The notes beneath the pieces were generated by a model. The model saw only the letters and a list, made by a program, of their open reading frames with translations. It was not told the DNA's origin and did no database searches. A DNA stretch of 32,000 bases from Candidatus Electrothrix sp. GW3-4 (GTDB lineage: Bacteria > Desulfobacterota > Desulfobulbia > Desulfobulbales > Desulfobulbaceae). Shown here one piece after another: positions 3,552 through 25,126 of the stretch (positions are counted from its first letter, which is position 1; every line of letters begins with the position of its first letter). A program made the translations under genes and the position numbers. Where the stretch lies: the NCBI RefSeq assembly GCF_037902255.1, contig NZ_CP147990.1:2610001-2642000 (forward strand), written 5' to 3'.

Positions 3552-4364
3552 TTATTGCCCAAAGGACTTGGAACGCTCGGTTGCCGCCTCCACAGCGGTC
3601 ATAACCGTACCGCGCAGGCCCCCTTCTTCCAGAGCCTGAATCCCGGTAATAGTTGTACCGCCGGGCGAGGTTACCTTACCCTTGAGTACGGCGGCGGGCT
3701 CTCGGGTCTCCAGGGCCAGTTTGGCAGAACCGTACAGGGTCTGGGTCGCTAATTGCTCAGCCACTGGACGCGGAAGTCCAGACAGCACCCCACCGTCGAT
3801 CATGGCCTCAAGAAAGGTAAACACATAGCCTGGACCAGAACCACTCAAGCCGGTGACGGCATCAAGGAGATTTTCCGGCACTTCGATGCAGGTACCCACA
3901 GCGGAAAAAATCTCCTGGGCAATCTCCATGTCCTCCTGCCGGATATTTTCATTACCGCTCATGGCTGAAGCACCGGCCAACACCAGGGCAGGAGTATTGG
4001 GCATCACCCGGATAACACGCATATTCCCACCAACAACCTGTTCTATGCAGGAAAGAGGAATACCGGCAGCAATAGAAATAAGAAGATGATCATTCGTGAT
4101 ATGAGCACTGTACTGCCGCAGAACCGGCTCCATAATCTGTGGTTTTATCGCAAGAATGACAACCTGGCTCTTTTCCGTGACCTCAGCAGGTGTTTCCACG
4201 GCATTAACCTGATAGGTCTTATTAAGATATTCACGCCGCCGCATCATAGGCTCGGCAACAGTGATGTTGCCCGCCGCTGTTATCCCTGACTCTATCATAC
4301 CGCGAATCAGGGCTTCCCCCATCTGGCCTCCGCCAATCATGCCTACAAATAATGTTTCCTTCAT
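3552..4364 (-). CDS. proC: Pyrroline-5-carboxylate reductase
   Basis: N-terminal Rossmann motif MIGGGQMGEAL, RVMPNTPALV and VTSPGGTTITG motifs. AAGGAG SD lies before the ATG at 4364. Length is 270 aa. Confidence 0.9.
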   Translation of the reverse strand: MKETLFVGMIGGGQMGEALIRGMIESGITAAGNITVAEPMMRRREYLNKTYQVNAVETPAEVTEKSQVVILAIKPQIMEPVLRQYSAHITNDHLLISIAAGIPLSCIEQVVGGNMRVIRVMPNTPALVLAGASAMSGNENIRQEDMEIAQEIFSAVGTCIEVPENLLDAVTGLSGSGPGYVFTFLEAMIDGGVLSGLPRPVAEQLATQTLYGSAKLALETREPAAVLKGKVTSPGGTTITGIQALEEGGLRGTVMTAVEAATERSKSFGQ

Positions 4365-4910
4365 GGCTTCTCCTTATTTCTCTTCTCTCTACAGAATAAC
4401 AAAACTATAAAATCCACCCCAGGGGAGGTGGCTTTCCAGGACGACATAAACCGTTCTTTCCCTCTGAGGGGAAGGTATCGAACTGCGTGCTTTCTCAACA
4501 ATGCATTCCACAGCAGGAGGGCTATCCCAAATATTCGCCGTATTTTTTCGTCATCATACCAGCATATGAAAAAAAATCATCTCTCAATTACAGGAGCTGC
4601 TGAGAATAACCAGAGAAAAAGGTCCCCCAAAAAACCAGGGATACCCATAAAAAAACTATATTTCCAAAGGATCCTCCCTCCTTCTTTCGCCTTGAAAAAA
4701 ACTCACAAAAATATTACCATTCACTTGTTAAATTTATTGTACGTCCTTGTCCCTATGGCGGATCATCGGCACTGTCAACACAGAAGGCGCTCAGCTTGAA
4801 CCACTGCTTGCTTTAATCTGCCCAGATAATGCGTCAATAATGCACAACACACCATCCCGTTACTCAGCAGGAAGGAGGGGGGCATCCCCCTGTTAACTCA
4901 TAGGAGAAAC

Positions 4911-5818: not shown

Positions 5819-8350
5819 ATGACCCTCTATGAAGTTGCTGTCGCCGCCCCTGTTTTCGGGAGTCTGACCTATGCGCAACCGGCTGACCTCACGATCTCCT
5901 TGCCGGTCGGCGTTCGGGTACTGGTCCCCCTGCGCAACCGCTTTATCACCGGCTATATCCTGGCGGCTCTGCCTTCCCCTCCAGACCTCCCTTATCAGAT
6001 CAAACCCATCTTTGAACGACTTGACCCGGCACCTCTTTTCCCAGAACAGCTTATCCCCTTTTTCCGTTGGCTTGCTGACTATTACCATTATCCATTGGGA
6101 GAGGTCATTCAGACCGCCCTCCCCTCCGGCCTCCGGGCCGGTTCCGGGCACGAGATCATCCTGACCGAGCTGGGGCACCAACAACTCCCCTCCGCACTGA
6201 CTTCCCTAAAAAACAGGGTCGCCTGGATGGACCGCTTACTGGCCCAGGGAAGGCTCTTACCAGGAACGGTAAAGACCATCCGAACCAAGCCCGCTCTACA
6301 GACCCTGTTGCGCACATGGCAAGCAGAGGGATGGATCAACATCAATGAAGTAATCGTCGCTCCCAAGGTCAAGGAAAAAACCGAAACCGTGGTTCGACTG
6401 GAGAATGAACTTCAGGAGTACCTCGCCCTGCCCCAGAATTACCAGGCAGCCGCTGAAGAAGGGCCTGGAGAAACGCTCCTTCCATCCTCCCCCTTAGTTG
6501 AGGGACTAAAAAAATCTGAACGCAAGACCCTGGATCTCTTCTTCCAGCATTGCAAGGGGCGCCCAACCCTGCCTCGCGCCGAGCTGACCCGACAATATTC
6601 CGGGGCAGGCAAGGCCCTTCACCGTCTTGCAGCAAGCGGCCTGATCAGCCTTGCAGAGCAACGGGTCTACCGGGACCCCTTTGGCAAGGTGCCCCCTTTC
6701 TTCCCAAAGCCGAAATCTCTGACCCCGGAGCAAGACCAGGCCATTGGCACGCTCAAGGAAGCACTTGATACGAATGGATTCCAACCCTTCCTACTGCATG
6801 GCGTAACCGGATGCGGAAAGACCGAGGTCTATCTCCAGGCAACAGAATACTGCCTCAACAAGGGAAAATCTGTACTGGTCTTGGTGCCAGAGATAGCCCT
6901 GTCATCCCAACTGGAGGGACATTTTTATTCTCGTTTCGGGGACACCCTGGCCATCCTCCACAGCGGTATCTCACGCGGAGAACGCTTTGACCAATGGCAG
7001 CGGATTCTTCAAGAAAAAGTACGTATTGTTATCGGGGCCCGTTCAGCGGTCTTTGCTCCACTTGCCGAGCCCGGCTTGATCATCGTTGATGAGGAACATG
7101 AAGCAGCCTATAAGCAAGACGATGGCCTTCGCTATAACGGGCGTGACATGGCCGTGTTACGGGCAAAGTTTGCCGATTGCCCGGTCCTCCTTGCCTCGGC
7201 AACCCCCTCTGTGACCAGTTTTTATCATGCTGAACAGGGAAAGTATCGTCTTCTCAGCATGACAAAACGGGTCCTTGATCAGGTTATGCCTAAAGTGAGC
7301 ATTATCGATCTCCGCGAAAAAAAACGGGCGCAGAAGAACGCCTTTTTTTCCAATCAACTCCTCACTGCCGTACAGGAAAATCTGGCGAACCAGCAGCAGA
7401 GCCTGCTTTTTGTCAATCGCCGTGGTTATGCTGCTTTCATGCTCTGTCGGGACTGTGGTTACATCCTCCAGTGTCGCCACTGTAAGGTCTCTCTCACCCA
7501 TCACCAAGGCGCGAACCGTTTACTCTGTCATTACTGCGGCTATTCAACAGCACCGAATCTTGTCTGCCCAGATTGCGGCTCCAGCTCAGTTATTGGCCTG
7601 GGGGTGGGTTCGGAACGAATTGAACAAGAGGTGCGCCAACTCTTTCCCAGCGCTGGTGTTGCCCGGCTGGATAGCGACACAACAAGGGATCGCAAGGCCT
7701 ATCTGCGCATTTTAGACCAGGTACGCAACCATGAGGTGGATATTCTGGTTGGTACACAGATGGTGGCCAAGGGACTCCATTTCCCAGCAATGACCTTGGT
7801 GGGTATCGTCTGGGCAGACAGCGGACTCGGAATTCCCGATTATAAGGCGGCGGAACGTTCCTATCAGCTCCTCGCCCAGGTCACGGGAAGGGCGGGACGA
7901 GGCCAATACCCAGGCCGGGTCATTATCCAGACCCATCAGCCACAGCATTATGTCATCGAATTCGCTCAATCCCATGCATATACAAAATTATATCGTCAGG
8001 AGCTGGCGCTTCGACAAGCCCTTACCTATCCGCCTTTTGGTCGACTGGTGAATATCCGTTTTAGTGGGAAACAGGAAGAAGAGGTAAAAAAAACAGCACA
8101 TGCGACTGCGGCCTTTTTTCGATCAGTGATCGCTGCGCATACAACAACATATAACCAGGTAGAAATCCTGGGGCCAGCCCCTGCGCCCTTATCCTTGATA
8201 CGACAACACTTTCGCTGGCAATTATTGCTCAAAAGCAGCATACCTAAATTTCTCCATCAGCTTTGCGACTTGCTTTTGAAAGAAAAAAGAATAAGTTACG
8301 GGAAGGGGGTCAGGATAGCAATTGATGTGGACCCAGAAAATATGCTGTAA
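5819..8350 (+). CDS. priA: Primosomal protein N' (replication restart helicase PriA)
   Basis: Walker A GVTGCGKTEVY, a DEEH box, and the Cys-rich zinc-binding insert CRDCG..CRHC...CHYCG...CPDCG. Length is 843 aa. Confidence 0.9.
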   Translation: MTLYEVAVAAPVFGSLTYAQPADLTISLPVGVRVLVPLRNRFITGYILAALPSPPDLPYQIKPIFERLDPAPLFPEQLIPFFRWLADYYHYPLGEVIQTALPSGLRAGSGHEIILTELGHQQLPSALTSLKNRVAWMDRLLAQGRLLPGTVKTIRTKPALQTLLRTWQAEGWININEVIVAPKVKEKTETVVRLENELQEYLALPQNYQAAAEEGPGETLLPSSPLVEGLKKSERKTLDLFFQHCKGRPTLPRAELTRQYSGAGKALHRLAASGLISLAEQRVYRDPFGKVPPFFPKPKSLTPEQDQAIGTLKEALDTNGFQPFLLHGVTGCGKTEVYLQATEYCLNKGKSVLVLVPEIALSSQLEGHFYSRFGDTLAILHSGISRGERFDQWQRILQEKVRIVIGARSAVFAPLAEPGLIIVDEEHEAAYKQDDGLRYNGRDMAVLRAKFADCPVLLASATPSVTSFYHAEQGKYRLLSMTKRVLDQVMPKVSIIDLREKKRAQKNAFFSNQLLTAVQENLANQQQSLLFVNRRGYAAFMLCRDCGYILQCRHCKVSLTHHQGANRLLCHYCGYSTAPNLVCPDCGSSSVIGLGVGSERIEQEVRQLFPSAGVARLDSDTTRDRKAYLRILDQVRNHEVDILVGTQMVAKGLHFPAMTLVGIVWADSGLGIPDYKAAERSYQLLAQVTGRAGRGQYPGRVIIQTHQPQHYVIEFAQSHAYTKLYRQELALRQALTYPPFGRLVNIRFSGKQEEEVKKTAHATAAFFRSVIAAHTTTYNQVEILGPAPAPLSLIRQHFRWQLLLKSSIPKFLHQLCDLLLKEKRISYGKGVRIAIDVDPENML

Positions 8351-8390
8351 GATAAAAAGAGAAAAAAAAGAAACACCCCGAAACGGGGTG
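8351..8390 (-). terminator. Intrinsic terminator oriented for the minus strand
   Basis: The minus strand reads CACCCCG-TTT-CGGGGTG followed by TTTCTTTTTTTTCTCTTTTT. On the plus strand the same hairpin has no downstream U-tract. Confidence 0.6.
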
Positions 8391-8672
8391 CTCTGTCCAA
8401 CTATAAAAATACCCCGGTAGGAAAAAAAAGGAGGAGTAAACCTACCGAGGCATAGGGTTGAACCTTATGATGCTTATTACGTATAAAAAACGAGCTCAAT
8501 ACATGCCCCGGCAGGAAAAAAAAGGAGGAGTAAACCTGCCGGGGCATAGGGTTGAACCTTATTTACAGAGAGTCTCAGCGGAGCTAACTGCCCCGGCAGG
8601 AAAAAAAAAGGAGGAGTAAACCTGCCGGGGCTATAGGGTTACGCACCCTATGCTATATATAAAAAAGGGGGA
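8352..8672 (-). ncRNA. Candidate ~300-nt small RNA with three anti-Shine-Dalgarno-like (UUUACUCCUCCU-run) hairpin loops; strand assignment tentative
   Basis: The minus-strand-only terminator at 8351-8390, the minus-strand TATAAT at 8683-8678, the absence of a credible CDS and the three structured repeats support this call. The ends are guesses. Confidence 0.35.
8412..8653. repeat. Three copies of a two-hairpin unit (10-bp GC stem with a ~20-nt A-rich GGAGGAG loop, then a small ATAGGG/CCCTAT hairpin)
   Basis: Copies lie at 8412-8467, 8506-8562 and 8591-8653. The stem is CCCCGGCAGG/CCTGCCGGGG in copies 2 and 3. Copy 1 has CCCCGGTAGG/CCTACCGAGG, a compensatory C:G to T:A swap. Confidence 0.9.
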
Positions 8673-8677
8673 AATAA

Positions 8678-8706
8678 ATTATATTTATTCAGAACCCTGT
8701 TGCATC
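8678..8706 (-). promoter_or_regulatory. Possible sigma70-type promoter for the candidate sRNA
   Basis: A perfect TATAAT lies at 8683-8678 on the minus strand. Only a weak -35 (ATGCAA/GATGCA) sits 16-17 nt upstream. Confidence 0.3.
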
Positions 8707-9106
8707 TCCGCTTGAACAACTTGCCACTCTCTATCTTGACGTTGTTTTCGCATTTATAAATGCTATATTCATGCCACTTTTTCTTGTTTCTGCTGGCTTA
8801 TTCTAATTTCTTGTAATGACTACCCTAAAACAGGAACAAGAATCTTTGCCAATAACACTTCTTTTTCATTACCGCCGCAAAACGCGTAAGTTTTATCCTT
8901 ACCCAGATACCAGCCGGGTAAAAAATACCCAATCGTCCTCTGATATTCCACCAATAACGATTCCAGCACAAGATTTTCGAGCTATCTTTTGACTTGTCCT
9001 CCTCTGATAGAGTAAACTCCATTTTCAGAAGTCAGGAAAGACCATTCCACCTTGCAAGCAGAAATACAACCAACTGATTATAAAAACAAAAAATACCAAG
9101 AATAAC

Positions 9107-10978
9107 GTGTCAGAACATCAATACGACGAATCGAAGATCAAAACCCTCAGCTCCCTGGAGCATATTCGTAAACGCCCCGGCATGTACATTGGTCGGCTCG
9201 GTAATGGGTCCGACCCTGATGACGGTATCTACATCCTCCTCAAAGAGGTGATAGATAATGCTGTGGATGAATATATTATGGGCCACGGCAAACAAGTGGA
9301 TATTTCTATCGAAGAAAATGGCCGCTGTCGCGTTCGAGATTACGGACGCGGCATTCCCTTGGGCAAGGTTGTAGAGTGTGTTTCTGTTATCAATACCGGG
9401 GCCAAATACAACACTGATGTCTTTCAATTTTCCGTAGGACTCAACGGAGTAGGAACTAAGGCTGTGAATGCCCTTTCCTCGCAATTCACCGTCTGTGCCT
9501 TTCGGGAAGGAAAATTCAAAAAAGCCATCTTTGAGCAAGGCACGCTCGTAAGTGAGGAAGAGGGAGAGGCTGATGAAAAAAACGGTACGCTGATAGAATT
9601 TCTCCCTGATGCCGAGTCCTTCCCCAAATACTCTTTTGACATGGATTATGTCGATCAGCGTTTATGGCGTTATGCCTACCTCAATGCGGGCTTAACGCTC
9701 TATCTTGACACACCACCCCCAGAGGAAGACGGAGAAACCAGCAAGCCCGCAAAGAAAAAATATCATTCTGCCAAGGGGCTCCTTGATCTGCTGCAAAAGG
9801 AACTGGGTGATAAGGGAATCTATCCCCCTATACAATCTTCAGAGACCGCTCTCGAATTCGCCTTCACCCACACCGATGATTATAGCGAGACCTATTATTC
9901 CTTTGTCAACGGAACCTATACCTCAGAAGGAGGCACCCATCTCTCGGCCTTTCGCGAAGGAATCCTGAAAGGAGTCAATGAGTTTTCAGACAAAAAATAC
10001 ACGGGAAAAGATGTACGAGACGGGATTGTCGGTACTCTTGCCGTTAAAGTACAAGAACCAGTTTTTGAATCGCAGACCAAGAATAAACTGGGAAATACCG
10101 ATGTAAAAGGATGGATTGTCAATGCCATTCGCGAAGCAGTTGCGACCTATCTCTATAAATATCCAGAGAACACAGAACTCTTCATGGATAAGGTCCAACG
10201 CAACGAACGCATCCGCAAGGAGTTACAATCTGTGCGTAAGGAGGCAAAGGCAAAGGCAAAAAAGGTTGCCTTCAAGATTCCACAGCTCAAGGATTGCAAA
10301 CACCACCCTTCCCGGCAAAATTCCTCAAAAAAAGGGCAAGAAAATATGATCTTTATCACTGAGGGGCAGTCCGCTGCTGGCTCTATTGTCTCCTCACGTG
10401 ATCCTATGACCCAGGCCGTCTTTTCCCTTAAGGGAAAACCCATGAACGTCTTTGGCCAACGACTTGACATCCTCTATAAAAACGACGAGATGTATTCTCT
10501 CATGCGGAGCCTAAATGTCGAGGATTCCATCGCCGACCTGCGTTTTGACAAGATCATTCTGGCAACCGATGCGGACGTGGATGGGCTGCATATCCGCAAC
10601 CTGCTTCTCACCTTTTTTCTTCATTATTTTGAGGCATTGATCAAACTCGGTCATGTCTACATCCTGGAGACGCCTCTTTTTCGCGCTAGAAACAAAAAGA
10701 AGACCATCTACTGCTATTCTGATCAGGAGAAAGAGGAGGCGATCAACGCCTTGAAGGGACGGGGCAACGCAGCTTCAGTAGAAGTTACCCGTTTCAAAGG
10801 ACTCGGGGAGATTTCACCACCGGAGTTCAAGCAGTTCATCGGCCCGGATATGCGAATTCAGCCTGTCCGGCTGGATAGCTTATCTGAAGTCGGTCAGGTG
10901 CTCAGTTTTTACATGGGAAAAAACACGCCTGACCGTCGTCAGTATATTATGGAACATCTGGTCTTGCGACCAGCATGA
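9107..10978 (+). CDS. parE: Type IIA DNA topoisomerase subunit B (ParE-like by length; GyrB family)
   Basis: Motifs present: HIRKRPGMYIG, EVIDNAVDE, DYGRGIP, GLNGVG, QTKNKLG, the Toprim EGQSAAGS and DADVDGLHI. At 623 aa it lacks the long GyrB insert. It uses a GTG start and has no obvious SD. Confidence 0.85.
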   Translation: MSEHQYDESKIKTLSSLEHIRKRPGMYIGRLGNGSDPDDGIYILLKEVIDNAVDEYIMGHGKQVDISIEENGRCRVRDYGRGIPLGKVVECVSVINTGAKYNTDVFQFSVGLNGVGTKAVNALSSQFTVCAFREGKFKKAIFEQGTLVSEEEGEADEKNGTLIEFLPDAESFPKYSFDMDYVDQRLWRYAYLNAGLTLYLDTPPPEEDGETSKPAKKKYHSAKGLLDLLQKELGDKGIYPPIQSSETALEFAFTHTDDYSETYYSFVNGTYTSEGGTHLSAFREGILKGVNEFSDKKYTGKDVRDGIVGTLAVKVQEPVFESQTKNKLGNTDVKGWIVNAIREAVATYLYKYPENTELFMDKVQRNERIRKELQSVRKEAKAKAKKVAFKIPQLKDCKHHPSRQNSSKKGQENMIFITEGQSAAGSIVSSRDPMTQAVFSLKGKPMNVFGQRLDILYKNDEMYSLMRSLNVEDSIADLRFDKIILATDADVDGLHIRNLLLTFFLHYFEALIKLGHVYILETPLFRARNKKKTIYCYSDQEKEEAINALKGRGNAASVEVTRFKGLGEISPPEFKQFIGPDMRIQPVRLDSLSEVGQVLSFYMGKNTPDRRQYIMEHLVLRPA

Positions 10979-11040: not shown

Positions 11041-11487
11041 CTAAAGAATATCAGCCCAATTTTTCAATTCCTTAAGGTTTAACCGATGAGGGAAAAAATA
11101 TATCATCTCACCGTCAAGCTTTAAAAAATCATTCACTAGAAACTCCCTGCTCACCTCGGCGGGATGAATAGCCTTACATAACAATGCGGTCTGCAGAAAA
11201 GAGAAACTCTCAAGTTTCATAGCAAGGAACTCAAGCGCGATTCCTTCTTCAGTCACCCGGGAAACCGAACCAATCGCACGAATCACATTTTTTTCATACA
11301 ATGCAGACTGTTTCAAATCAATTATACAGAGGTCGCCAATAGCTTGGTCAAAATCCCCCTCAATCAATATTCCACTGAGGCTTACATTATTCACAAAACT
11401 TTTATATTCGTTTACGTGGAACTTAAGATGCACGGCCCACAGGATGCCCACTCGTGAAAATCGACGATTGTTTATATTTTTCATCAT
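11041..11487 (-). CDS. PilZ-domain (c-di-GMP binding) protein
   Basis: The N-terminus has RRFSR (RxxxR), followed 21 residues later by NVSLSG ([D/N]xSxxG). This is the canonical PilZ motif pair. Length is 148 aa. Confidence 0.7.
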   Translation of the reverse strand: MMKNINNRRFSRVGILWAVHLKFHVNEYKSFVNNVSLSGILIEGDFDQAIGDLCIIDLKQSALYEKNVIRAIGSVSRVTEEGIALEFLAMKLESFSFLQTALLCKAIHPAEVSREFLVNDFLKLDGEMIYFFPHRLNLKELKNWADIL

Positions 11488-13367: not shown

Positions 13368-16094
13368 TTATTTCTTCGCAGGTAATTTCACCTGTTGATG
13401 AGGATAAATAAGGTCAGGATTGGCAATCTTATTTTTCTTGGCAACATCAGGATAATTAAAACCGCTGCCAGTATATTGCTCAGAAATCTTCCAGAGCGTA
13501 TCTCCTTTACTCACGGTATGATAAGTCTGATCTGACGTGCCATACAGAGGAGACATCGGTGGTCTTTTTTTCTGCTCAACATGCACGGGCTCTGTAAAAG
13601 AGATCGCCTCACCTGGTGTCTTACCTGTTGCCTTGCCAGCTTCTACAGCAGGGACTCCATCACCTGACCCTGCCACAGCAGGAATCCCTTGTTTCGTGGC
13701 GCGGCCCTCTTCAAGATCTCCACCTTGCTCTATCGGCTGAGCCAAACTTCCTGTCTTGGCGACCTCCTTAACGACATCCCCCTGCCCTTTCCTAACGATA
13801 TCCGAAGAAATATCCTGGGAAAGATCCACAACCGGGACAGCCTGCCTCTGCTCCCCTCTCTTTCCTTCACTCTTGGCCGGGCCTGTCTCAGGTTCATTGG
13901 AGAGTCTTGCCTCCCTGTCCCTCCTTAATACTGACGTACCACTCTCCCGAGCATGCTTCCCCCCCAGGTCTTCCCTATCTGTTCTTGCAGCAAGGGGAGC
14001 AACTCCCGAATCCTCAACAGGCTCCTTCTCCCTTATCACGGCAGTCTTGTGAGAAAGGTCGTCAACTACATGCTGTTGGGAAACTGCCTTCTCCTTGTCG
14101 TTTTCCTCACGAACATCCCTGGCAAGACCCTCTTCCGTCTCTCCCAATTCCTGGCCTTCCATTCCCTCCTCTTGCGTCACAGCATTTTCTGAAACATCCT
14201 TTCCTACAACAGTCTTTGGAGCAAGTTCTCTCTTTTCAAAAAAATCCTCCACAGGAATCGCCGCTGTTGACTGCTCAAAAATTGCTTGACCAGGGTGACC
14301 AGACGGAGTCCCTTGCCCCTCTTGCCCAACCCCTTTCTGGTCTGCCAATACCGATTCAGATTCTGGAAAGGCAGACGGATGCGCAACCAGCTGTTCAGGC
14401 ACCTTCTCCGGGATATCCTTTTCTATTCGTCCATCCCCTTCCCTCTTCTCAAAGGCTCCATCCAGAACCTCAGGAGCGGCTTGCTGATTATTTTCTAACC
14501 GAGGAGGATCGGATTTGATATTTTTTCCACGGAAAACTTCTTGATTTCGAAAGACAAAAAGCCAAAGAAAAAACCCTGCAAAGAGGACCAGCAATAAGAA
14601 GAGCATCCACAGCCTGAAACGCCTGCTCTCCTGAGCTTGCGGTGGGGGAAGCGGTTCCGTTTCTACCTCATGTGCTGCATCCTGAAAAAGAATATCCCGC
14701 TCTCTCTTCTTTATTTTATCAAGTTTCTTTTTAATCTTCCTCGGATCTGGGGATAAGAGAGGGGGGAATTGAACCTGCTTAACAAAATCAGCAGGCGCCA
14801 AAGCCGGGGATAAGGTCTCCTGTTCTGTTCCAGAAAATTGCCGAACAAACTCTTTGAGCTCAGAAAAGGTACCTGCCTCTTCAGGAAGGCTCCAATCCTC
14901 GGATAATAAAGCGGCGTCTTCCCAATCCTGCAACTGGCCAGGAGGCTCCAGAGAGAAATTTTTCTCCTCCCTCCCTCCGACAGCCTCAACATCCGGGCTC
15001 ACCGCTGTTTTTACTCCTTCTTCCCTTTGGCTATCAGCCCCTTCGCTGGAATCAGTCTGTTTTTTGACATCATTTTCGGCTGTTGGTGAAGAAGAAAAGC
15101 TGCCATTTTTTTTAAGATCCGAATGAGCCCCGTGCTCTTCATCATTCAGGAAAAGGTCAGCAGGCACCGCATGAGCTGACGTAAAAGATGCCAGCCCCTC
15201 TCCTACTGGCGCCTCTATCAACTTATCACCACCAGCGCTTTCTTCCTGCTCTTCCGGCTTATCAACATGACCATCTTCATCCTTCCGAGAAAATGCAGTG
15301 GCCAAGGAAGATTGCAGCAGGGCATCCTGTTCCTCAGTGAACATGAAAGCAGGAAGATCTGATGGGACGCCATTGTCATCTGTTTCCTCGAGGTCCTCAC
15401 CTTCTTCCTGAAGCAAAAAAGCATCATCATCCTGTAACGAAGTCTGGGACACTACCAAGGAGTTTCCAGTCGGAACAAGAGACTGGCCTTCATCCAGAGA
15501 GGATGCATACTCCTTTTCACCTCCTTCCCCTTCTTTCGGCGTATCAGGGCGATGGATATCTTTTTGCTCCTTCTTGTGATGAAACGCTGTGAGCAAGGAG
15601 GATTGCAACAGTTTTTCCTGTTCTTCAGTCAGCGAGACAGGTACATCCTCCCCCCTGGACTCTGTTTGCTGACACTCCTCAAGGCCATCCCCGAGGTCAG
15701 CAAGGGAGGGGGACGCCCCTTGCTTATCTTCTACACGATCAAACAAATCATCGTCTTGGCCCGATTCGGCAGCAGACGGCTGCTCGTTCTCCTCAAGAGA
15801 ACTCGGCAGAAGAGTTTTTCCATCTGAACCACTGTCGCTTTGACCTGCTCGGTTCGCGTCTTCAATATCAAAAAATTCGTTAAAGAAACCGTCGTGTTCA
15901 GCCGTACTCGCGAGAAATCGGTCCTCTTTACCCCGTGAAACAACAGACTGTTCCTCATCACCTTGCAGAAGCGTTCTATCCACTTCCGATAGAGCTCCCG
16001 ATCCCCCTTGAAACCCGAAAGAAGCGTCTGATATTTCAGAAACAGAATTGAGTTCCTGCCCCCCCTTGCTTCTCGTCGACTTCAGACCTATCAT
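13368..16094 (-). CDS. Large acidic single-pass membrane protein with C-terminal LysM domain (inverted FimV/HubP-like layout)
   Basis: 908 aa. Residues 1-490 are highly acidic and low-complexity with repeated TEEQ(D/E)xLLQSSLxTAF motifs. The TM helix is FRLWMLFLLLVLFAGFFLWLFVF (nt 14550-14618). An acidic E/K/G-rich region follows. The terminal YHTVSKGDTLWKISEQY...NPDLIYPHQQVKLP is LysM (nt 13380-13523). Confidence 0.8.
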   Translation of the reverse strand: MIGLKSTRSKGGQELNSVSEISDASFGFQGGSGALSEVDRTLLQGDEEQSVVSRGKEDRFLASTAEHDGFFNEFFDIEDANRAGQSDSGSDGKTLLPSSLEENEQPSAAESGQDDDLFDRVEDKQGASPSLADLGDGLEECQQTESRGEDVPVSLTEEQEKLLQSSLLTAFHHKKEQKDIHRPDTPKEGEGGEKEYASSLDEGQSLVPTGNSLVVSQTSLQDDDAFLLQEEGEDLEETDDNGVPSDLPAFMFTEEQDALLQSSLATAFSRKDEDGHVDKPEEQEESAGGDKLIEAPVGEGLASFTSAHAVPADLFLNDEEHGAHSDLKKNGSFSSSPTAENDVKKQTDSSEGADSQREEGVKTAVSPDVEAVGGREEKNFSLEPPGQLQDWEDAALLSEDWSLPEEAGTFSELKEFVRQFSGTEQETLSPALAPADFVKQVQFPPLLSPDPRKIKKKLDKIKKRERDILFQDAAHEVETEPLPPPQAQESRRFRLWMLFLLLVLFAGFFLWLFVFRNQEVFRGKNIKSDPPRLENNQQAAPEVLDGAFEKREGDGRIEKDIPEKVPEQLVAHPSAFPESESVLADQKGVGQEGQGTPSGHPGQAIFEQSTAAIPVEDFFEKRELAPKTVVGKDVSENAVTQEEGMEGQELGETEEGLARDVREENDKEKAVSQQHVVDDLSHKTAVIREKEPVEDSGVAPLAARTDREDLGGKHARESGTSVLRRDREARLSNEPETGPAKSEGKRGEQRQAVPVVDLSQDISSDIVRKGQGDVVKEVAKTGSLAQPIEQGGDLEEGRATKQGIPAVAGSGDGVPAVEAGKATGKTPGEAISFTEPVHVEQKKRPPMSPLYGTSDQTYHTVSKGDTLWKISEQYTGSGFNYPDVAKKNKIANPDLIYPHQQVKLPAKK

Positions 16095-18255
16095 TTTCCC
16101 CTTTCCCTTTCCGAAGGATTGAGACCAGGGTAGAGGTCATCAAATGATCCTGTTCTTCTGTTAACAGGACAGATGCCGCCTCCAGAGTAGCAGCATCTTC
16201 CCTTGTCGTCCCCTCCCCCCCCTCATGCGAGGGGACAGAGTCCTCTTCATGAAACGCAGTCTCTACGGCACCTTCTTTTTTCTTTACAACATCCTCTTTC
16301 GGTTCAACAGCATCCAGGACATCGAAAGCCGCTTTACCCTTCCCTCCCTGGTTTACCGTCCTTAATCCATTAGCCAACTCATCTTCTTTATGGCTGAGCA
16401 AAGCGGCCACAACAGATGAAAAGGTTTCCCCAGATTCCTCACCGATCCCAGCAAGCTCCTCCGGTTCCTCGATAAATCCAGAAGAACCAGCGTTCTTATC
16501 TGATTCACTCTCCTCCGACTTGTCTGTTTTCCGACTCAGCATTGATGCCACGACAGACTGCACCAGGGTATCCTGTTCTTCTTCCGCAAGGAGAACCGAA
16601 GCATTCCTTTCCAGATCCCAGTCATCAACAGGACCCTGCCCCTTGGAGAGAACATGCCGCTCTGGAGGGATAATGCCCTTGTTCTCAGATGAAATCAGGC
16701 CCCCTTCTTCGGCACCTTCCTCCCCATGAAGAGATTCCCTTACAAACGAGTCATCGGGTGCAAACCTTTCTTCGGCAGGCATTCTCAGCTCACTCTTCGG
16801 GTTAACGCCCTTCTCATTTTCATTTACCAGAGGGAGCAGATCATCTGAAAAGAAAAACAACTTGCGCACTTGCTTATCATCAAAACAGGTCGTCAGGGCC
16901 AGGATATTGAGAATCAGGCCCACCCGACTGGCCACGGGATAACAGCCATACACGGAAGAGTGCGGAGCAGTAAAGGGCAATGCACGCTGTTCGCTGACAG
17001 TAAGCGTCCGTTTTCCAAGAACCTCTTCAACCAAAACCAAGACACGCAGGTCGCCGTTACAGACCTGGAGCAGCTTCCAATTGGGGGTAGGATGGGATTC
17101 CCGCCCAAAACATCGGGCTGGGTCAAGAACGGGTAATAACTCATTCTGGTACAAAGTGACACCGGCAACAAGTCCTTTGCTACCTGCCAGACGCTGGCAA
17201 TGAGTGAAGGGGAGCGTATCCACGACCTCAACATCAGGCAGGGCATGAATCATCTTGTAAAGGGTAAACTCGACGATATCGACCGGCTGCTTACCAAATA
17301 CGGACGCAAAATGGCGCTCTGACTTCAAATTCGGGGTTATGACCTGCGAATGTATCTCATCCGGCGGCTGAGCAAGCAGCGCCCTGAAATCAAGCACAGA
17401 AATGATCTTTCGATCAGAGAGAATAGCGTTCTGCCGCCAGTCAGATCGGACCAGCACGGGTAATGGGGCAAGGGTCACAGAATCAGCAGACAAGGTTCCC
17501 TGATCACCATCAACGACAAAGGCGAAGCCCTGCCCTTCAACAGTGCCAATAAGCCATTTTTCCTCTCCACCTTCTCTCTCAGATGGGAGCTGTAAATATT
17601 CCCTGATGTCAAGAACGGTGAGGACCTGCTCACAGTACAGGGTCATTCCTTGCACAAAGGCAGGCAGAAGCGGGAGAGTAGTTAACGCACCAGGAGGCTG
17701 TGCCTGCTCCGAAACAAAATAATCGACTGAGGCAGCAAACGATTTTTCCTTGCAGGTAAAAACCCTGAAAGAGGTCAACGAGGGCGTGCTTTTCCCTTTT
17801 AGTAAGGGAAGATGCAACTGCGGAGCCGGGGGAGTATAGCCAGCAACAGAGACCTGGCGATGGACTTCCCGGATATTGATCAGAGGGACAAGTTTTCCGC
17901 CAAGCTCTACACAGCTGTCTATAAAGGGTGTTTGCAGGTAGACAGGAAGAGAGAAAACAGCCGTGGAAGGTAGCTGCACCTTGCCCTTTTCCTGTTCCAC
18001 AACAAAGCTGACTGAAAGATCATGACCCGCAGGAACGAGCACAGGATATCTTCTGGCCCTGCGGACAGGAGCAAGCCCGAGACAGTACGAGAGATCTGCC
18101 AGGCTGACCGGATGCGCCCCCATCATGGCGATAGCGGTCACGGCGCTGTTATTGTCTGTCAACCAATGGATACTCTGTTCTTCATGAGAAAGAACATCCT
18201 CTTTCCAGACACCGCAACGAAACCCGGCAAGGTCAAGCAGCAGAAGCTCTCTCAT
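16036..18255 (-). CDS. Protein with three tandem CheW-like modules and an acidic C-terminal tail
   Basis: The modules are at about aa 4-133, 164-297 and 326-458. Each shows the CheW layout, for example ELLLLDLAGFRCGVWKEDV...VTAIAMMGAHPVSLADLSYCLGL...YPVLV...SFVVEQ...GGKLVPLINIREV when aligned by eye to E. coli CheW. I take the ATG at 18255, which has a GGAG SD 6 nt upstream. The ORF track begins at a GTG at 18261. Confidence 0.7.
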   Translation of the reverse strand: MRELLLLDLAGFRCGVWKEDVLSHEEQSIHWLTDNNSAVTAIAMMGAHPVSLADLSYCLGLAPVRRARRYPVLVPAGHDLSVSFVVEQEKGKVQLPSTAVFSLPVYLQTPFIDSCVELGGKLVPLINIREVHRQVSVAGYTPPAPQLHLPLLKGKSTPSLTSFRVFTCKEKSFAASVDYFVSEQAQPPGALTTLPLLPAFVQGMTLYCEQVLTVLDIREYLQLPSEREGGEEKWLIGTVEGQGFAFVVDGDQGTLSADSVTLAPLPVLVRSDWRQNAILSDRKIISVLDFRALLAQPPDEIHSQVITPNLKSERHFASVFGKQPVDIVEFTLYKMIHALPDVEVVDTLPFTHCQRLAGSKGLVAGVTLYQNELLPVLDPARCFGRESHPTPNWKLLQVCNGDLRVLVLVEEVLGKRTLTVSEQRALPFTAPHSSVYGCYPVASRVGLILNILALTTCFDDKQVRKLFFFSDDLLPLVNENEKGVNPKSELRMPAEERFAPDDSFVRESLHGEEGAEEGGLISSENKGIIPPERHVLSKGQGPVDDWDLERNASVLLAEEEQDTLVQSVVASMLSRKTDKSEESESDKNAGSSGFIEEPEELAGIGEESGETFSSVVAALLSHKEDELANGLRTVNQGGKGKAAFDVLDAVEPKEDVVKKKEGAVETAFHEEDSVPSHEGGEGTTREDAATLEAASVLLTEEQDHLMTSTLVSILRKGKGENDRSEVDEKQGGAGTQFCF

Positions 18256-18356
18256 AATCACTCCATTCAGTGGAACACAGGTTCTCCAGCTTTTTTATCC
18301 ATCGCATTCCTACTCGCGAAAGAAGAGCAGGGGCAGCGAGTTCTCGTTGTCGCTTA

Positions 18357-20842: not shown

Positions 20843-23800
20843 ATGAAATCTCTCGGTATATGCGCTGGTGCTTCCAGCATCTCCTTAGCAGGACTTGAAC
20901 AGAACGCCACAGAAAGAAAGCTTCTTTTTACTCAATCCCGGGCCCATGACGGTAACCCAAGAAAGGTGCTGCGGGAGATGCTGGGGCAGCTTGAAGATCT
21001 TCAGCAATACAGGATTGCGGCCACCGGACGAAAGTTCAGAAATATGCTCAACTTCTCCGGCATTGCTGAGCCCGAGGCCGTGGAGCAGGCGACTGCGTTC
21101 CTCCTGCCCCCGGATCATCCCTATCGGGTGGTAATCAGTGCCGGTGGTGAGACCACCATGGTCTACCATCTGGATGAGGACGGCAGGGTGAACGAGATCC
21201 ACACCGGCAATAAATGCGCCTCCGGCACCGGGGAATTCTTTCTCCAGCAGCTGGGCAGGATGTCGGTCACTCTGGATGAGGCAGGCGAGATGAACCTGCC
21301 GGAAAAACCCCACAAGGTCTCCGGGCGCTGTTCCGTATTCTGCAAGAGTGATTGCACCCATGCCCTGAACAAGGGCGTCCCCAAGGACCAGGTGGTTGCT
21401 GGCCTATCGCGAATGATGTCGGGCAAGGTCATGGAGCTCCTCAAAAAACTCCCCAAGGATGCGGTGATGCTGGTGGGTGGCTGTGTAGACAATCAGGCCA
21501 TGGTCCATTATCTGCAAGAGGCCATCCCCGATCTGTACATCCCGAAAGAAGCTGCCGCCTTTGAGGCCTTAGGTGCGGCACTCTGGGCGATGGAGAACAA
21601 AGCCCAACCCTTCATCTCACTGGATGCCATCTTCACCGACCAGCAGGCTGGCCTGGCCACCCTGCCTCCGCTCTCTGCCTGCCAGCATCTGGTGCATTAC
21701 AAGAATCAGGAACGAGGCATTGCTGAAGAGGGTGACAAAGTCATCCTCGGTCTGGATGTGGGTTCAACCACCACTAAGGGCGTGCTTATGCGGCGGAGCG
21801 ATAAGGCCATTATTGCTGCCGAGTACCTGCGCACCAACGGCGATCCCATCGAGGCCTCAAAGAATGTCTACCAAAGCCTGGCAGATCAGGTCAAGGTACC
21901 TCTTACTATTGAGGGCCTGGGAGTGACCGGCTCTGGCCGCCAGATCGCTGGTCTCCATGCCCTGACCGACGGGGTGATCAATGAGATTGTGGCCCATGCC
22001 ACGGCAGCGGTCCATTTTGACCCGGAAGTGGATACCATCTTTGAGATCGGGGGCCAGGATGCCAAGTACACCTATATCACCAACGGGGTGCCCAGCGACT
22101 ATGCCATGAACGAGGCCTGCAGTGCAGGCACCGGCTCCTTTCTCGAGGAGGCGGCCAAGGAGAGCTTGGGCCTGGCAGTGACCGAAATCGGCGACACCGC
22201 CTTCCGGGCCACTGCCCCGCCCAACTTCAGCGACCAATGCGCGGCCTTTATCGGCTCAGACATCAAACGCTCGGTCCAGGAAAACGTGCCCCTGGAGGAT
22301 ATCGTGGCCGGACTGGTCTACTCCATTGGCATGAATTATAACAACCGGGTCAAGGGCAACCGGCCAGTGGGCAAGAAGGTCTTTGTCCAGGGCGGGGTCT
22401 GTTATAATAAGGCCGTGCCAGCGGCCATGGCCAGCCTGACCGGCAAAGAGGTGGTGGTCCCCTCAGAGGCCGGACTCATGGGGGCCTTTGGCGTGGCCCT
22501 GGAGGTGGAGCGACGCATGGAACAGGGCCTGCTTAACTCCCAGGAGTATGATCTCCAGGAGCTGATTGCCCGGAAGGTGAAGTACGGCGAACCCTTCATA
22601 TGCGGTGGCGGCAAGGACTGCGACCGAGGCTGTGAGATTTCCCGGATCCGGATCAAGGACAAGGTCTATCCCTTTGGCGGCATCTGTAACCGCTACGACA
22701 ACCTGATCCATAACCGTAAGGTCCAGACCGAGGACCTGAACCTGGTGATCAAGCGGGAGCAGCGGGTCTTCCGCGATCTGGCGCCTGCCGCCCCGACAGA
22801 TACCCGGCCCACCGTGGGCATGAACCGCTCCTTTCTCCTCAACACCTACTTCCCCTTCTTTAATGCCTTCTTTGCCGAGCTTGGTTTCCGCCTCACCCTG
22901 CCCTCCAAGGAAGATCCCAAAGGTACGGATCAACAGGGGGCAGCCTTCTGCTATCCGGTGGAGATTGCCCATAATTACGCGGCAACCCTACTGGCGGAAA
23001 AGCCCGACTATATCTTCCTGCCCCATCTCCGGGGCCTGGATATGGGTGAGCCGGACATGACCTCCTGCACCTGTGTCTTGGTCCAGGGAGAACCCTATTA
23101 TCTGCGCACCGCCTTTCCGGCCCTGAGCCCTGCTGGTCGGGTGGTTTCTCAGGTGATTGATTTCTCCAAGGGCAATAGCGCAGATACCGAGGCCTTCCTG
23201 GAATTAGCAGGAAACATGGGCATTGATCCGGCCGAGGTAAAGGATAAAGTAACAGCAGCCCTGAAGGCAGCAGATGCGTCGCAGCAGGCCTTTACCCAGG
23301 ATATCCGCGCAATGGGCAAACAGGCCCTGGCTGCCCTGGAGGCGACCCCGGAACAGTTCGGCACTGTGGTCTTCGGGCGTCCCTATAATGCCTTTACCTC
23401 AGTAGCCAATAAGGGCATTCCCGCCAAATTCGCCAGCCGGGGCATCGCGGTGATCCCCTTTGATATGCTGCCCTATTGGGAGGAGCAACTGGCTGAGGAC
23501 GAGAATATGTACTGGGCAATGGGCCAGATCATCCTCAAGGGGGCCCGCTTTGTCGAGCGGCACCCTCAGCTCTTTGCTACCTATATCACCAACTTCTCCT
23601 GCGGCCCGGACTCCTTCCTGGTCAGCTTCTTCCGGGATATGATGGGGCGCAAGCCCTCCCTGACCCTGGAACTGGATAGTCATACCGCAGATGCGGGCCT
23701 GGAAACCCGGATCGAGGCCTTTCTCGACATCATCCGCTACTACCGGGAGATCCAGAAGAAGGCCGCCTCTGTCCAGGTTGAAGAGCAGGTATACCGTGCT

Positions 23801-25126
23801 GCCACCCTTGAGGAACAACACGGCGTCACCGGGGTCCGCACCTCCAATGGCCACTGGCTGCCGCTGACTGACCCCAAGGTCCGCCTGCTCGTCCCGGCCA
23901 TGAGCCGATATGCCACCCCCTTGCTGGCTGCCGCCTTCGGAAGGGTCGGTATTCGGGCCGAGGCACTGCCGCCTGCGGATAAGGAAGTCCTCAAATTAGG
24001 TCGTGGTCATGCCTCGTGCAAGGAATGCCTGCCCCTGCAGACTACGCTGGGATCTCTGCTCAACCGGGTCAAGGCGCGCAAAGAGGATGAGGTGCTGGTT
24101 TACTACATGCCAGGTGCGGACGGCCCCTGTCGCTTTGGCCAGTATTATGTCTATACCAACAGGGTGCTTGAACAGCACAAGATTACAGACACAGCGGTGT
24201 TTACCCCCACCTGCACAAACGGATATCAGGGGTTGAACGATGCCTTTCTCCGGGCGGCATGGCGGGCGGTGGTGATCGGCGATCTCTTTGATGAGATGTG
24301 GTCGACTGTGCTGGCCGGAGCCGAGAATCGGGAGGCAGGCCTGCAGGTCTTTCATGAAGAGTTCAAGGCCATCACAGCGGTCATGCATCGGCGTTGGCCT
24401 GTAATTGCAAGCCAGCTCTCCAGGTCTGCGGCCCGCCTGGGCCGGATCCCCCTGAAGATGCCCTACGAACAGATCCCCAAGGTCTCCCTGATCGGCGAGA
24501 TCTACGTGCGCCACGACCCGATCTCCCTCCAGAGCCTTATCGAATCGCTGGCTGACCGAGGCATTATTGTCCGTACAGCATCAATCAATGAATGGCTGAA
24601 GTATACTGATTGGCTGATTCAAGAGGAGATCGAAGGAGAAGGGCCAACAATGGGTTCTGCTCTGCGGGGGCAGATAAAGAGATACTTTGACAGCGCCATC
24701 CGCAAACGGCTGGCTGCTTCAGGGCTGTTCTTTTATGATGGGCCAGCACCGGTCGAGCCGATCATTGATGTGGGCAAGAACTTCATCTCCCCTTATCTCA
24801 CCGGGGAGGCCATCCTCACCGTGGGCTCGGCCATGCACGAGATCCTCCATCCCTCCTGCGGCATCATCTCCATTGGGCCCTTTGGTTGTATGCCCTCCCG
24901 GGTGGCCGAGGCCGTGCTGAGCGAGAAGTTCACCACCACGGAGAAGCGGGTCCAACTCAACGGGGAGGGGGACCGTTGGCAGCCCATCTTAGAAAAGGAG
25001 CGCAAGCTGCCCTTTATCGCCATAGAGACCGACGGCAACCCCTTTCCGCAGCTCATCGAGGCCCGGATGGAAGCCTTCTGTCTCCAGGCAGAACGCTTGA
25101 ACGAGCAGATGCTGGCGTGTCAATAG
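20843..25126 (+). CDS. Acyl-CoA dehydratase activase-related fusion protein (two BcrAD/BadFG-type ATPase domains plus large C-terminal domain)
   Basis: Two actin-fold ATPase starts are present (LGICAGASS; ILGLDVGSTTTKGVL). Cluster-ligand contexts are CASGTGEFF / SGRCSVFCKSD and CSAGTGSFLEE. A ~750-aa C-terminal region typical of the long 'CoA-substrate-specific enzyme activase' fusions follows. Total length is 1427 aa. Confidence 0.8.
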   Translation: MKSLGICAGASSISLAGLEQNATERKLLFTQSRAHDGNPRKVLREMLGQLEDLQQYRIAATGRKFRNMLNFSGIAEPEAVEQATAFLLPPDHPYRVVISAGGETTMVYHLDEDGRVNEIHTGNKCASGTGEFFLQQLGRMSVTLDEAGEMNLPEKPHKVSGRCSVFCKSDCTHALNKGVPKDQVVAGLSRMMSGKVMELLKKLPKDAVMLVGGCVDNQAMVHYLQEAIPDLYIPKEAAAFEALGAALWAMENKAQPFISLDAIFTDQQAGLATLPPLSACQHLVHYKNQERGIAEEGDKVILGLDVGSTTTKGVLMRRSDKAIIAAEYLRTNGDPIEASKNVYQSLADQVKVPLTIEGLGVTGSGRQIAGLHALTDGVINEIVAHATAAVHFDPEVDTIFEIGGQDAKYTYITNGVPSDYAMNEACSAGTGSFLEEAAKESLGLAVTEIGDTAFRATAPPNFSDQCAAFIGSDIKRSVQENVPLEDIVAGLVYSIGMNYNNRVKGNRPVGKKVFVQGGVCYNKAVPAAMASLTGKEVVVPSEAGLMGAFGVALEVERRMEQGLLNSQEYDLQELIARKVKYGEPFICGGGKDCDRGCEISRIRIKDKVYPFGGICNRYDNLIHNRKVQTEDLNLVIKREQRVFRDLAPAAPTDTRPTVGMNRSFLLNTYFPFFNAFFAELGFRLTLPSKEDPKGTDQQGAAFCYPVEIAHNYAATLLAEKPDYIFLPHLRGLDMGEPDMTSCTCVLVQGEPYYLRTAFPALSPAGRVVSQVIDFSKGNSADTEAFLELAGNMGIDPAEVKDKVTAALKAADASQQAFTQDIRAMGKQALAALEATPEQFGTVVFGRPYNAFTSVANKGIPAKFASRGIAVIPFDMLPYWEEQLAEDENMYWAMGQIILKGARFVERHPQLFATYITNFSCGPDSFLVSFFRDMMGRKPSLTLELDSHTADAGLETRIEAFLDIIRYYREIQKKAASVQVEEQVYRAATLEEQHGVTGVRTSNGHWLPLTDPKVRLLVPAMSRYATPLLAAAFGRVGIRAEALPPADKEVLKLGRGHASCKECLPLQTTLGSLLNRVKARKEDEVLVYYMPGADGPCRFGQYYVYTNRVLEQHKITDTAVFTPTCTNGYQGLNDAFLRAAWRAVVIGDLFDEMWSTVLAGAENREAGLQVFHEEFKAITAVMHRRWPVIASQLSRSAARLGRIPLKMPYEQIPKVSLIGEIYVRHDPISLQSLIESLADRGIIVRTASINEWLKYTDWLIQEEIEGEGPTMGSALRGQIKRYFDSAIRKRLAASGLFFYDGPAPVEPIIDVGKNFISPYLTGEAILTVGSAMHEILHPSCGIISIGPFGCMPSRVAEAVLSEKFTTTEKRVQLNGEGDRWQPILEKERKLPFIAIETDGNPFPQLIEARMEAFCLQAERLNEQMLACQ

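Follow-up and report, generated by a model that had tools for sequence, protein, structure and literature searches.

Tandem anti-Shine-Dalgarno hairpins behind a predicted sigma-54 promoter: a candidate regulatory RNA of cable bacteria

The RNAs closest in design to the one described here are the cuckoo/αr14 RNAs (NfeR1, SmelC397) and CcsR1-4 (RSs0680a-d) of the Alphaproteobacteria, in which two to four adjacent hairpins share a loop motif resembling the anti-Shine-Dalgarno (anti-SD) sequence. Loops of the UCCC or CCUCC type, including those of terminator hairpins, pair with Shine-Dalgarno (SD) sequences in LhrC1-5 of Listeria and in the streptococcal csRNAs, whose genes stand as tandem siblings; NrsZ, CrcZ, Qrr and GlmY bring together an RpoN-type -24/-12 promoter, an upstream activator site and repeated modules; and in CpxQ, SroC and the UCCCCUG motif of the icaR 3′ untranslated region (3′ UTR) the regulatory element sits in the 3′ UTR or terminator of a coding gene. 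Here we describe a locus with likenesses to each of these, found in a 32,000-nucleotide stretch of Candidatus Electrothrix sp. GW3-4 (contig NZ_CP147990.1, positions 2,610,001 to 2,642,000; ‘the window’, to which coordinates refer unless a relative is named)—three tandem hairpins with anti-SD-like loops, lying in the gap between priA and a gene for a GyrB/ParE-like protein—which very probably encodes a conserved and structured RNA, read from the minus strand and driven by sigma-54. This predicted RNA gene is previously undescribed and was found only in cable bacteria.

NfeR1 (αr14) carries three hairpins with an identical CCUCCUCCC, which act redundantly and silence ntrB and transporter mRNAs at the ribosome-binding site (RBS) (PMC10746234); the loops (9–27 nt) and hairpins (24–50 nt) of the cuckoo RNAs span ranges that overlap those seen here. 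The CCUCCUCCC motif itself is absent from our loops, the shared part being CCUCC/CUCCUCC, then a U-run of 6–9 nt. The stems vary around a shared loop motif in both designs; ours are conserved and homologous from unit to unit, as fits a recent tandem duplication; cuckoo genes have RpoH- or LsrB-dependent promoters and several scattered copies, in contrast to the sigma-54-type promoter and single locus of one to six units per genome found here; and they are alphaproteobacterial, whereas our RNA belongs to the Desulfobulbales and resembles no Rfam family, by sequence or by covariance model. The cable-bacterium RNA is thus like the cuckoo/αr14 RNAs in its proposed way of working but is not one of them, being set apart by motif, model similarity and taxonomic range; the same anti-SD motif on adjacent hairpins would have arisen independently in another phylum.

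As to the remaining groups, C/U-rich hairpin loops of the Firmicutes RNAIII (Staphylococcus) pair with SD sequences (PMC4615179), as we propose here. LhrC shows no homology to our locus (17 bits against a 110-bit threshold, E = 9.4); compared with this group of RNAs, the loops here are longer, hold a full 7-nt SD complement and have the ‘siblings’ fused in one predicted transcript. The modules of CrcZ are A-rich Hfq/Crc sites and those of the other sigma-54-type RNAs unrelated seeds, none of them displaying anti-SD loops, whilst, unlike in the 3′ UTR-derived RNAs, the coding part appears here to have disappeared from one genus, in which what was once the 3′ UTR would now be transcribed on its own from the parental promoter. 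What is distinctive is the predicted sigma-54 control, the single locus, the tandem amplification and an origin traceable to the 3′ end of an mRNA. Rfam searches, with the whole window at gathering thresholds and with 8300–9110 at E ≤ 10, returned chance-level matches only and, even at the latter cut-off, no family of the cuckoo/αr14 kind; our search of the literature found no paper describing a regulatory RNA in cable bacteria and none relevant on RpoN there.

The repeated hairpin, its strand and its occurrence

The 756-bp non-coding gap between the priA stop codon and the GyrB/ParE-like gene carries three direct copies of a unit of ~60 nt (8409–8468, 8503–8562 and 8589–8648), each of which folds into a GC-rich stem of 11–13 bp enclosing a loop of 19–20 nt that reads A8-9GGAGGAGTAAA on the plus strand. 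From shuffled sequence no chance match to the 39-nt core of the repeat is expected, and the region is far more stably folded than shuffles whichever strand is taken (z = -6.6 for the plus and -10.9 for the minus strand). The features concerned, with related loci and their units given L-numbers, are:

5819–8350, plus strand: priA, with Pfam PriA domains
9107–10978, plus strand: GyrB/ParE-like gene of 623 amino acids (aa)
8590–8631, minus strand: anti-SD hairpin 3, the 5′-most in the RNA, with a perfect 11-bp stem (8590–8600/8621–8631) and the 20-nt loop UUUACUCCUCCUUUUUUUUU
8503–8547, minus strand: anti-SD hairpin 2, with a perfect 13-bp stem (8503–8515/8535–8547) and the 19-nt loop UUUACUCCUCCUUUUUUUU
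8409–8453, minus strand: anti-SD hairpin 1, the 3′-most, with a 13-bp stem (8409–8421/8441–8453) holding one compensatory swap and one U·G wobble
8633–8651, minus strand: small hairpin AUAGGGU-GCGUA-ACCCUAU of 7 bp, adjoining the first anti-SD hairpin on its 5′ side
8455–8463 and 8549–8557: the G(U/C)UCAACCC motif, in plus-strand letters GGGTTGAAC
L007_4, L015_4, L016_6 and L018_4: units with a variant loop, each the 5′-most of its array

A covariance model made from the units matches all three on the minus strand, at 8575–8651 for hairpin 3 (73 bits), 8490–8564 for hairpin 2 (93 bits) and 8396–8470 for hairpin 1 (89 bits). The swap in copy 1 is a C-G to T-A change; an additional C-A mismatch becomes the U·G wobble when the copy is read as minus strand, the stem being 85% complementary on the plus strand, and UAUUUUUAUAG comes after this hairpin.

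Across an alignment of 43 distinct units, we see that the 13-bp helix is 98.2% paired and that eight of its 13 pairs show compensatory double changes, with none of 500 column shuffles reaching the observed values; in a slid-register control, with the 3′ partner moved by one to three columns, pairing drops to 28–57%. The non-Watson-Crick cells also speak to the strand: read as minus strand they comprise 53 G·U and 10 mismatches, read as plus strand 6 G·U and 57 mismatches of the A-C type—an asymmetry with which a cruder wobble count agrees—and, since most are therefore G·U on the minus strand, the structure under selection is that of a minus-strand RNA. The wobbles fall at nine different pair positions and so do not represent a single inherited event. 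On the minus strand the loops read UUUACUCCUCCU(6-9), that is UUUACUCCUCCU8-9 in the window; UCCUCC is identical in all 43 units, as is most of the U-run, whereas 11 of the 13 stem pairs vary, indicating that the loop is kept as sequence and the stem as structure.

A preliminary description, made from the letters of the window alone, had placed three GC-stem hairpins at these positions, noted the swap in copy 1, favoured the minus strand and recognised anti-SD-like loops, all of which our repeat, fold and alignment analyses bear out; the structural conservation in relatives to which it looked is seen as covariation, and its proposal of a non-coding regulatory RNA locus agrees with structure, covariation and transcription signals alike. 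Its other suggestion, a plus-strand RNA that sponges CsrA/RsmA, draws on the tandem GGA of the loops, A8GGAGGAGUAAA on that strand. The preponderance of A-C-type mismatches over G·U in the plus-strand stems contradicts it, and with it a plus-strand decoy of the 30S subunit; promoter and terminator, moreover, both lie on the minus strand (see below).

Beside the hairpins there are further conserved elements. In both genera each hairpin of the RNA is preceded, at 3–4 nt, by single-stranded G(U/C)UCAACCC (seen in all units of L002–L019, L024, L029, L035 and L036), which appears in the window as the GUUCAACCC motif beside hairpin 2 (8557–8549, minus strand) and hairpin 1 (8463–8455, minus strand) and which may serve in processing or in binding a protein. 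In the 3′-most Electrothrix unit, this motif can pair with a downstream GUUGGAC. The small 7-bp hairpin is seen beside the 5′-most unit in 9 of 11 aligned Electrothrix-type sequences, in keeping with one part of the earlier statement that an ATAGGG/CC(C)TAT hairpin follows each stem; beside the other units such ATAGGG/CCTAT pairings are not conserved in relatives, the conserved part of this region being the sequence GGGTTGA(A/G)C. There is no multiloop design, the hairpins simply being adjacent: three in the window, one to six in relatives. The 5′-most unit of several Electrothrix arrays has the variant loop UUUGAUCCUCCU6-7 (UUUGAUCCUCC) in place of the usual UUUACUCCUCC, and is even nearer to the GAUCACCUCCUUU tail of 16S rRNA.

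To map the occurrence of the hairpin we scanned one genome per species (185,579 species) for the 24-nt loop-plus-stem pattern AAAAAAGGAGGAGTAAACCTNCCG, obtaining 17 loci, which belong without exception to Ca. Electrothrix, Ca. Electronema or Desulfobulbaceae metagenome-assembled genomes; each genome, the three complete chromosomes included, has exactly one locus, with one to three exact matches to the pattern. The source genome of the window was not among the scanned representatives, its nearest PriA being 78–80% identical. A looser scan of metagenomes gave 21 matches, five of them further true loci of the same type and 16 chance occurrences without stems, and all 22 loci (17 from genomes, five from metagenomes) come from cable bacteria. 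Genomes hold one to six tandem units, amounting to 45 with the window.

The covariance model, run over ~200 kb of DNA around the loci, yields 56 strong matches, every one within an array, and in the window only the three known. A dispersed repeat of the REP/MITE type, named in the preliminary description as what might undo its proposal, is rejected on this absence of copies outside the arrays and on the single locus per genome, complete chromosomes included; to this reading and the plus-strand one together we assign a next to negligible probability. A CRISPR array was likewise considered and rejected, the inter-unit segments being repeated too (L016, L013) and cas genes being absent; the tracrRNA model scores 19 bits against a threshold of 70.

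Transcription signals and predicted extent of the RNA

On the minus strand, the hairpins are bracketed by a set of signals from which the extent of the RNA can be predicted:

8916–8930, no strand assigned: perfect palindrome GGGTA-N5-TACCC (GGGTAAAAAATACCC), ~140 bp upstream of the -24 element
8801–8855, minus strand: conserved upstream block TTATTGGCAARGATTCTYGTTCCTG...CATTACAAGAAATTAGAA, between palindrome and promoter
8776–8761, minus strand: sigma-54 type -24/-12 promoter TGGCATGAATATAGCA, the only match to TGGCAY-N5-TNGCW in the window
8699–8750, minus strand: variable leader, with a non-conserved open reading frame (ORF) of 22 codons (8753–8685)
8653–8698, minus strand: leader hairpin AGGG..AAUAAAU-loop-AUUUAUU..CCCU, then CCCCCUUUUUUAUAUAUAG, from RNAalifold on 11 sequences
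8361–8393, minus strand: intrinsic terminator GAGCACCCCGUUUCGGGGUGUUU plus U-run, with a stem (8393–8371) of 10 pairs, six of them G-C, and the U-run extending to 8361

The -24/-12 element, with its canonical spacing (TGGCAC-N5-TTGCW), stands 130 nt ahead of the first hairpin on the minus strand; it recurs, identically oriented, in 16 of 18 loci, the other two being truncated where the retrieved sequence stops, and takes the forms TGGCACGTTTTTAGCA, TGGCACGAATATGGCA and TGGCACAGATTTCGCA across loci. The palindrome is confined to a single site in the window (both strands match), where 0.05 are expected, and recurs once or twice at a similar distance (~115–145 bp) in L002, L004, L005, L008, L009, L010 and L014, seven relatives that span both genera. 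We regard it as a candidate activator site, to which an enhancer-binding protein acting with sigma-54 would bind; within the 32 kb of the window there is no gene for RpoN or for an AAA+ activator. Between the two, the upstream block is near-invariant in seven Electrothrix-type loci and recognisable in L003, and may be a site for a regulator or for bending of the IHF type, the likeness to IHF sites having been judged by eye (TTACAAGAAATTA against WATCAANNNNTTR).

With a predicted start near 8750 and an end at ~8361, the RNA would be roughly 390 nt long, with a folding energy of -146.7 kcal/mol (z = -8.1) and each of its three loops left open. The preliminary description had put its length at ~300 nt, a figure now revised from the position of the sigma-54 promoter, and had taken a TATAAT (8683–8678) for the promoter. 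That assignment does not hold: the TATAAT spans the loop and 3′ arm of the leader hairpin, which is A/U-rich and conserved, that loop differs in L003, L005 and L007, and the promoter scan did not call it, the conserved promoter being the sigma-54 element. The minus-strand terminator that it reported does belong to the locus, for we find it kept in nine other Electrothrix-type loci (L003, L005–L007, L013, L015, L016, L018 and the metagenomic L019), its stem in L005 being a compensatory variant, altered yet paired. A U-run follows only the last hairpin of each array, internal copies having none, as fits an array read through as a single transcript. A conserved small ORF was considered for the region and rejected: the ATG of the 22-codon ORF is lost in relatives (L018 and others), and the other short ORFs overlie the repeats.

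The Electronema arrangement and a proposed origin of the array

In the Electronema-type loci (L002, L004, L009, L010, L011, L014 and L017) the same sigma-54 promoter precedes a 160-aa ORF, ~40 nt from its ATG, and the hairpin lies ~25 nt after the stop codon of this ORF, followed by CAUCUUUUU or UAUUUUUUU; placed as it is between stop codon and U-run, the hairpin would be the terminator of the 160-aa gene, with the U-tract ending at the priA stop codon. The ORFs for this orphan protein of ~160 aa, in re-oriented coordinates, are:

L009 4003–4488, minus strand
L014 6074–6559, minus strand
L004 6491–6970, minus strand
L011 1557–2036, minus strand
L010 6875–7363, minus strand
L017 7587 to beyond 8000, minus strand

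Members of the family have a signal-like N-terminus, from which the product is predicted to be secreted; four or five Cys are conserved, the GLLLQLP motif is invariant and Q(E/G)S stands at the C-terminus. The family is confined to Ca. Electronema and close metagenome-assembled genomes. A Pfam search of the protein found no domain; its 20 homologues are nearly all from Electronema, and its AlphaFold model is poor (pLDDT 53). The earlier remark that no minus-strand coding sequence lies upstream of the terminator is right for the present genome, and does not extend to Electronema, where the hairpin forms the 3′ end of a coding mRNA.

With the Electronema protein as query, tblastn gave no match in the window or in the Electrothrix loci, and it is in the flanks of the missing gene that the two genera can be aligned. 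AACGTAARAG occurs at offset +32/33 from the -24 element in both (in Electronema, as 5′ UTR and SD), with the 5′ UTR/SD-like AACGTAAAAGA of the window at the same offset; L005 retains AAAGAGGG-N8-ATGAATGAACTGAACAG (SD, ATGAAT) and then a premature stop, the Electronema counterpart being ATGAATACTGCACAG; and all Electrothrix leaders keep CAACAGGGTTCTGAATAA where Electronema has ...CAGGGTTCCTGA, which codes for the invariant C-terminal Q-(G/E)-S-stop. The variable leader (8699–8750) is thus the probable remnant of a 5′ UTR and a deleted ORF, and we infer that Electrothrix lost the ORF, kept the promoter and multiplied the 3′ UTR hairpin to two to six copies; the opposite direction, gain of the ORF in Electronema, is possible in a comparison that has no outgroup. 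In our model, the hairpin would at first have served, in the 3′ UTR, to terminate the mRNA of an orphan secreted protein whose gene is driven by sigma-54, as in Electronema today, and ORF deletion with hairpin multiplication in Electrothrix would have turned it into a stand-alone regulatory RNA. Such a path would lead from the terminator hairpin of an mRNA, through loss of the ORF, to a free-standing and amplified regulatory RNA. The cuckoo/αr14 precedent runs closely parallel to the arrangement in Electronema.

The same observations invite a more sober account, in which the hairpin is a terminator or stability element only and the Electrothrix locus a decaying pseudogene with no role in trans. 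The Electronema hairpin, 25 nt past the stop and with its U-run, is indeed that gene's terminator on our own reading, and the decay of the ORF in Electrothrix is clear. Terminators, though, need no loop of 19–20 nt held invariant across two genera whilst the stem varies; the internal copies have no U-runs; and promoter, palindrome, hairpins and a separate canonical terminator have all been kept after loss of the ORF, the hairpin moreover being amplified to two to six copies. We consider this account improbable.

Still less probable, in our estimation, is action in cis, by which the minus-strand transcript would interfere with priA and the GyrB-like gene by colliding or pairing with read-through transcripts of the plus strand. 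These two plus-strand genes flank the locus in 17 of 18 genome loci, the window included (five of the 17 fragments show only one of the two genes), and the terminator scan found no plus-strand terminator after priA; against this, L017 has no priA in the 8 kb around its hairpins and yet keeps ORF and two hairpins together, the Electronema U-tract ends at the priA stop codon without overlap, and the invariant loop, the covariation of the stem and the variation in copy number would all go unexplained.

Proposed function and other features of the window

Our proposal for the working of the RNA is as follows. Transcription would start at the sigma-54-dependent promoter, probably activated from the upstream palindrome by an enhancer-binding protein, and would stop at the intrinsic terminator (8393–8361); after a short leader would come the three tandem hairpins, in each of which a strong stem would hold open a pyrimidine loop of 19–20 nt. 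The invariant UCCUCC core of this loop contains CCUCC, the anti-SD core of 16S rRNA, which is found in bacterial 16S 3′ tails (PMC6288834). The exposed loops would then pair with strong SD regions of the AAGGAGGAG type on mRNAs, occluding ribosome binding and repressing translation, and the several loops would act redundantly or additively, as experiments have shown those of the cuckoo/αr14 RNAs to do. RBSs of suitable sequence, AAGGAGGAG or AAAGGAGGA located 5–7 nt before ATG, occur in cable-bacteria loci, and among the strong, extended SDs of the fetched loci CAAGGAGGAGAACATG and CAAAGGAGGATTCCTATG complement the loop perfectly over 9 nt. Predicted duplex energies between loop and RBS in the window are comparable to those of a generic 16S tail.

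Several points weigh against this proposal. We found no specific target, the search of ~200 kb being non-discriminating, and ungapped complementarity with G·U allowed gave hopelessly non-specific target matches in the window; the loop being complementary to nearly every strong SD, a problem of specificity is raised. Pairing with SDs leaves the long U-run and the G(U/C)UCAACCC motif unaccounted for, which might instead bind a protein or serve in processing. The leader hairpin shows no covariation in the 11 sequences, its stem never varying whilst its loop does, and the promoter, the start site, the 3′ end and the abundance of the RNA are predictions throughout. Balancing these points against the conserved architecture, we give SD occlusion as the mode of action an even chance, and hold with similarly divided confidence that the best explanation overall is a ~390-nt, minus-strand, sigma-54-type RNA, specific to cable bacteria and derived from a 3′ UTR hairpin, that represses translation.

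The U-run, the G(U/C)UCAACCC motif and the variant 5′-most loop leave room for a protein-binding or decoy role. In its full form this would be a sponge: the same minus-strand RNA, its pyrimidine loops titrating a protein such as Hfq or ribosomal protein S1, which bind U-rich or pyrimidine sequence, or else an RNase toxin or other factor specific for the 3′ tail of 16S rRNA. Neither the 6–9 nt U-run nor the motif is needed for pairing to an SD, the 5′-most loop of several Electrothrix arrays approaches the 16S tail more closely than the others, and multi-site sponge RNAs under sigma-54 exist, CrcZ being an example. Toxins that cut the anti-SD of 16S rRNA have been described (PMC12274833, PMC12620021). 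However, none of the genomes examined has a gene for a candidate protein linked to the locus, the invariant core is the exact complement of an SD, and documented analogues with such loops work by base pairing and independently of Hfq (NfeR1); a sponge seems to us unlikely, if less so than the terminator-only account.

Taken to its extreme, translational repression by the RNA could amount to a global brake, switched by sigma-54, unique to cable bacteria and built as a multivalent mimic of the 16S 3′ tail, a possibility we rate as a long shot. If true, the RNA would compete with the 30S subunit for every strong SD, or act as a decoy for a toxin or other factor specific for the 16S tail, and would reprogramme the proteome of cells in the same filament, for instance setting those that oxidise sulfide apart from those that reduce oxygen; it would, besides, clearly illustrate how a 3′ UTR element can outlive the gene it came from. 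Cable bacteria cannot, to our knowledge, yet be grown in pure culture; the locus offers a well-defined candidate, delimited from promoter to terminator and present in every cable-bacterium genome that matched.

Some minor observations concern the surroundings of the array. The only public contig with an identical PriA (L001, a Logan contig of 5919 bp from SRR28154588) stops ~95 nt past the priA stop, within hairpin 1, its end probably being an assembly break arising from the tandem repeat. In some Electrothrix (L007, also L015) the GyrB-like gene is separated from the region upstream of the RNA by an extra, inserted small gene—in L007 at ~3900–4650 (re-oriented), between the upstream conserved block and the latter—which is on the minus strand, begins MNNCTISPRHSAARKTITGLFALAAMLTCLFCAGT, has a strong GAGGAG RBS and is absent from the window. 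Elsewhere in the window lie genes for a PilZ-domain protein (11041–11487, minus strand), a protein with three CheW-like domains (16036–18261, minus strand), a 1427-aa protein of the BcrAD/BadFG activase type (20843–25126, plus strand) and a STAND-type protein combining NB-ARC/NACHT with TPR (25251–27296, plus strand), neighbours that are, as far as we have seen, unrelated to the RNA locus.

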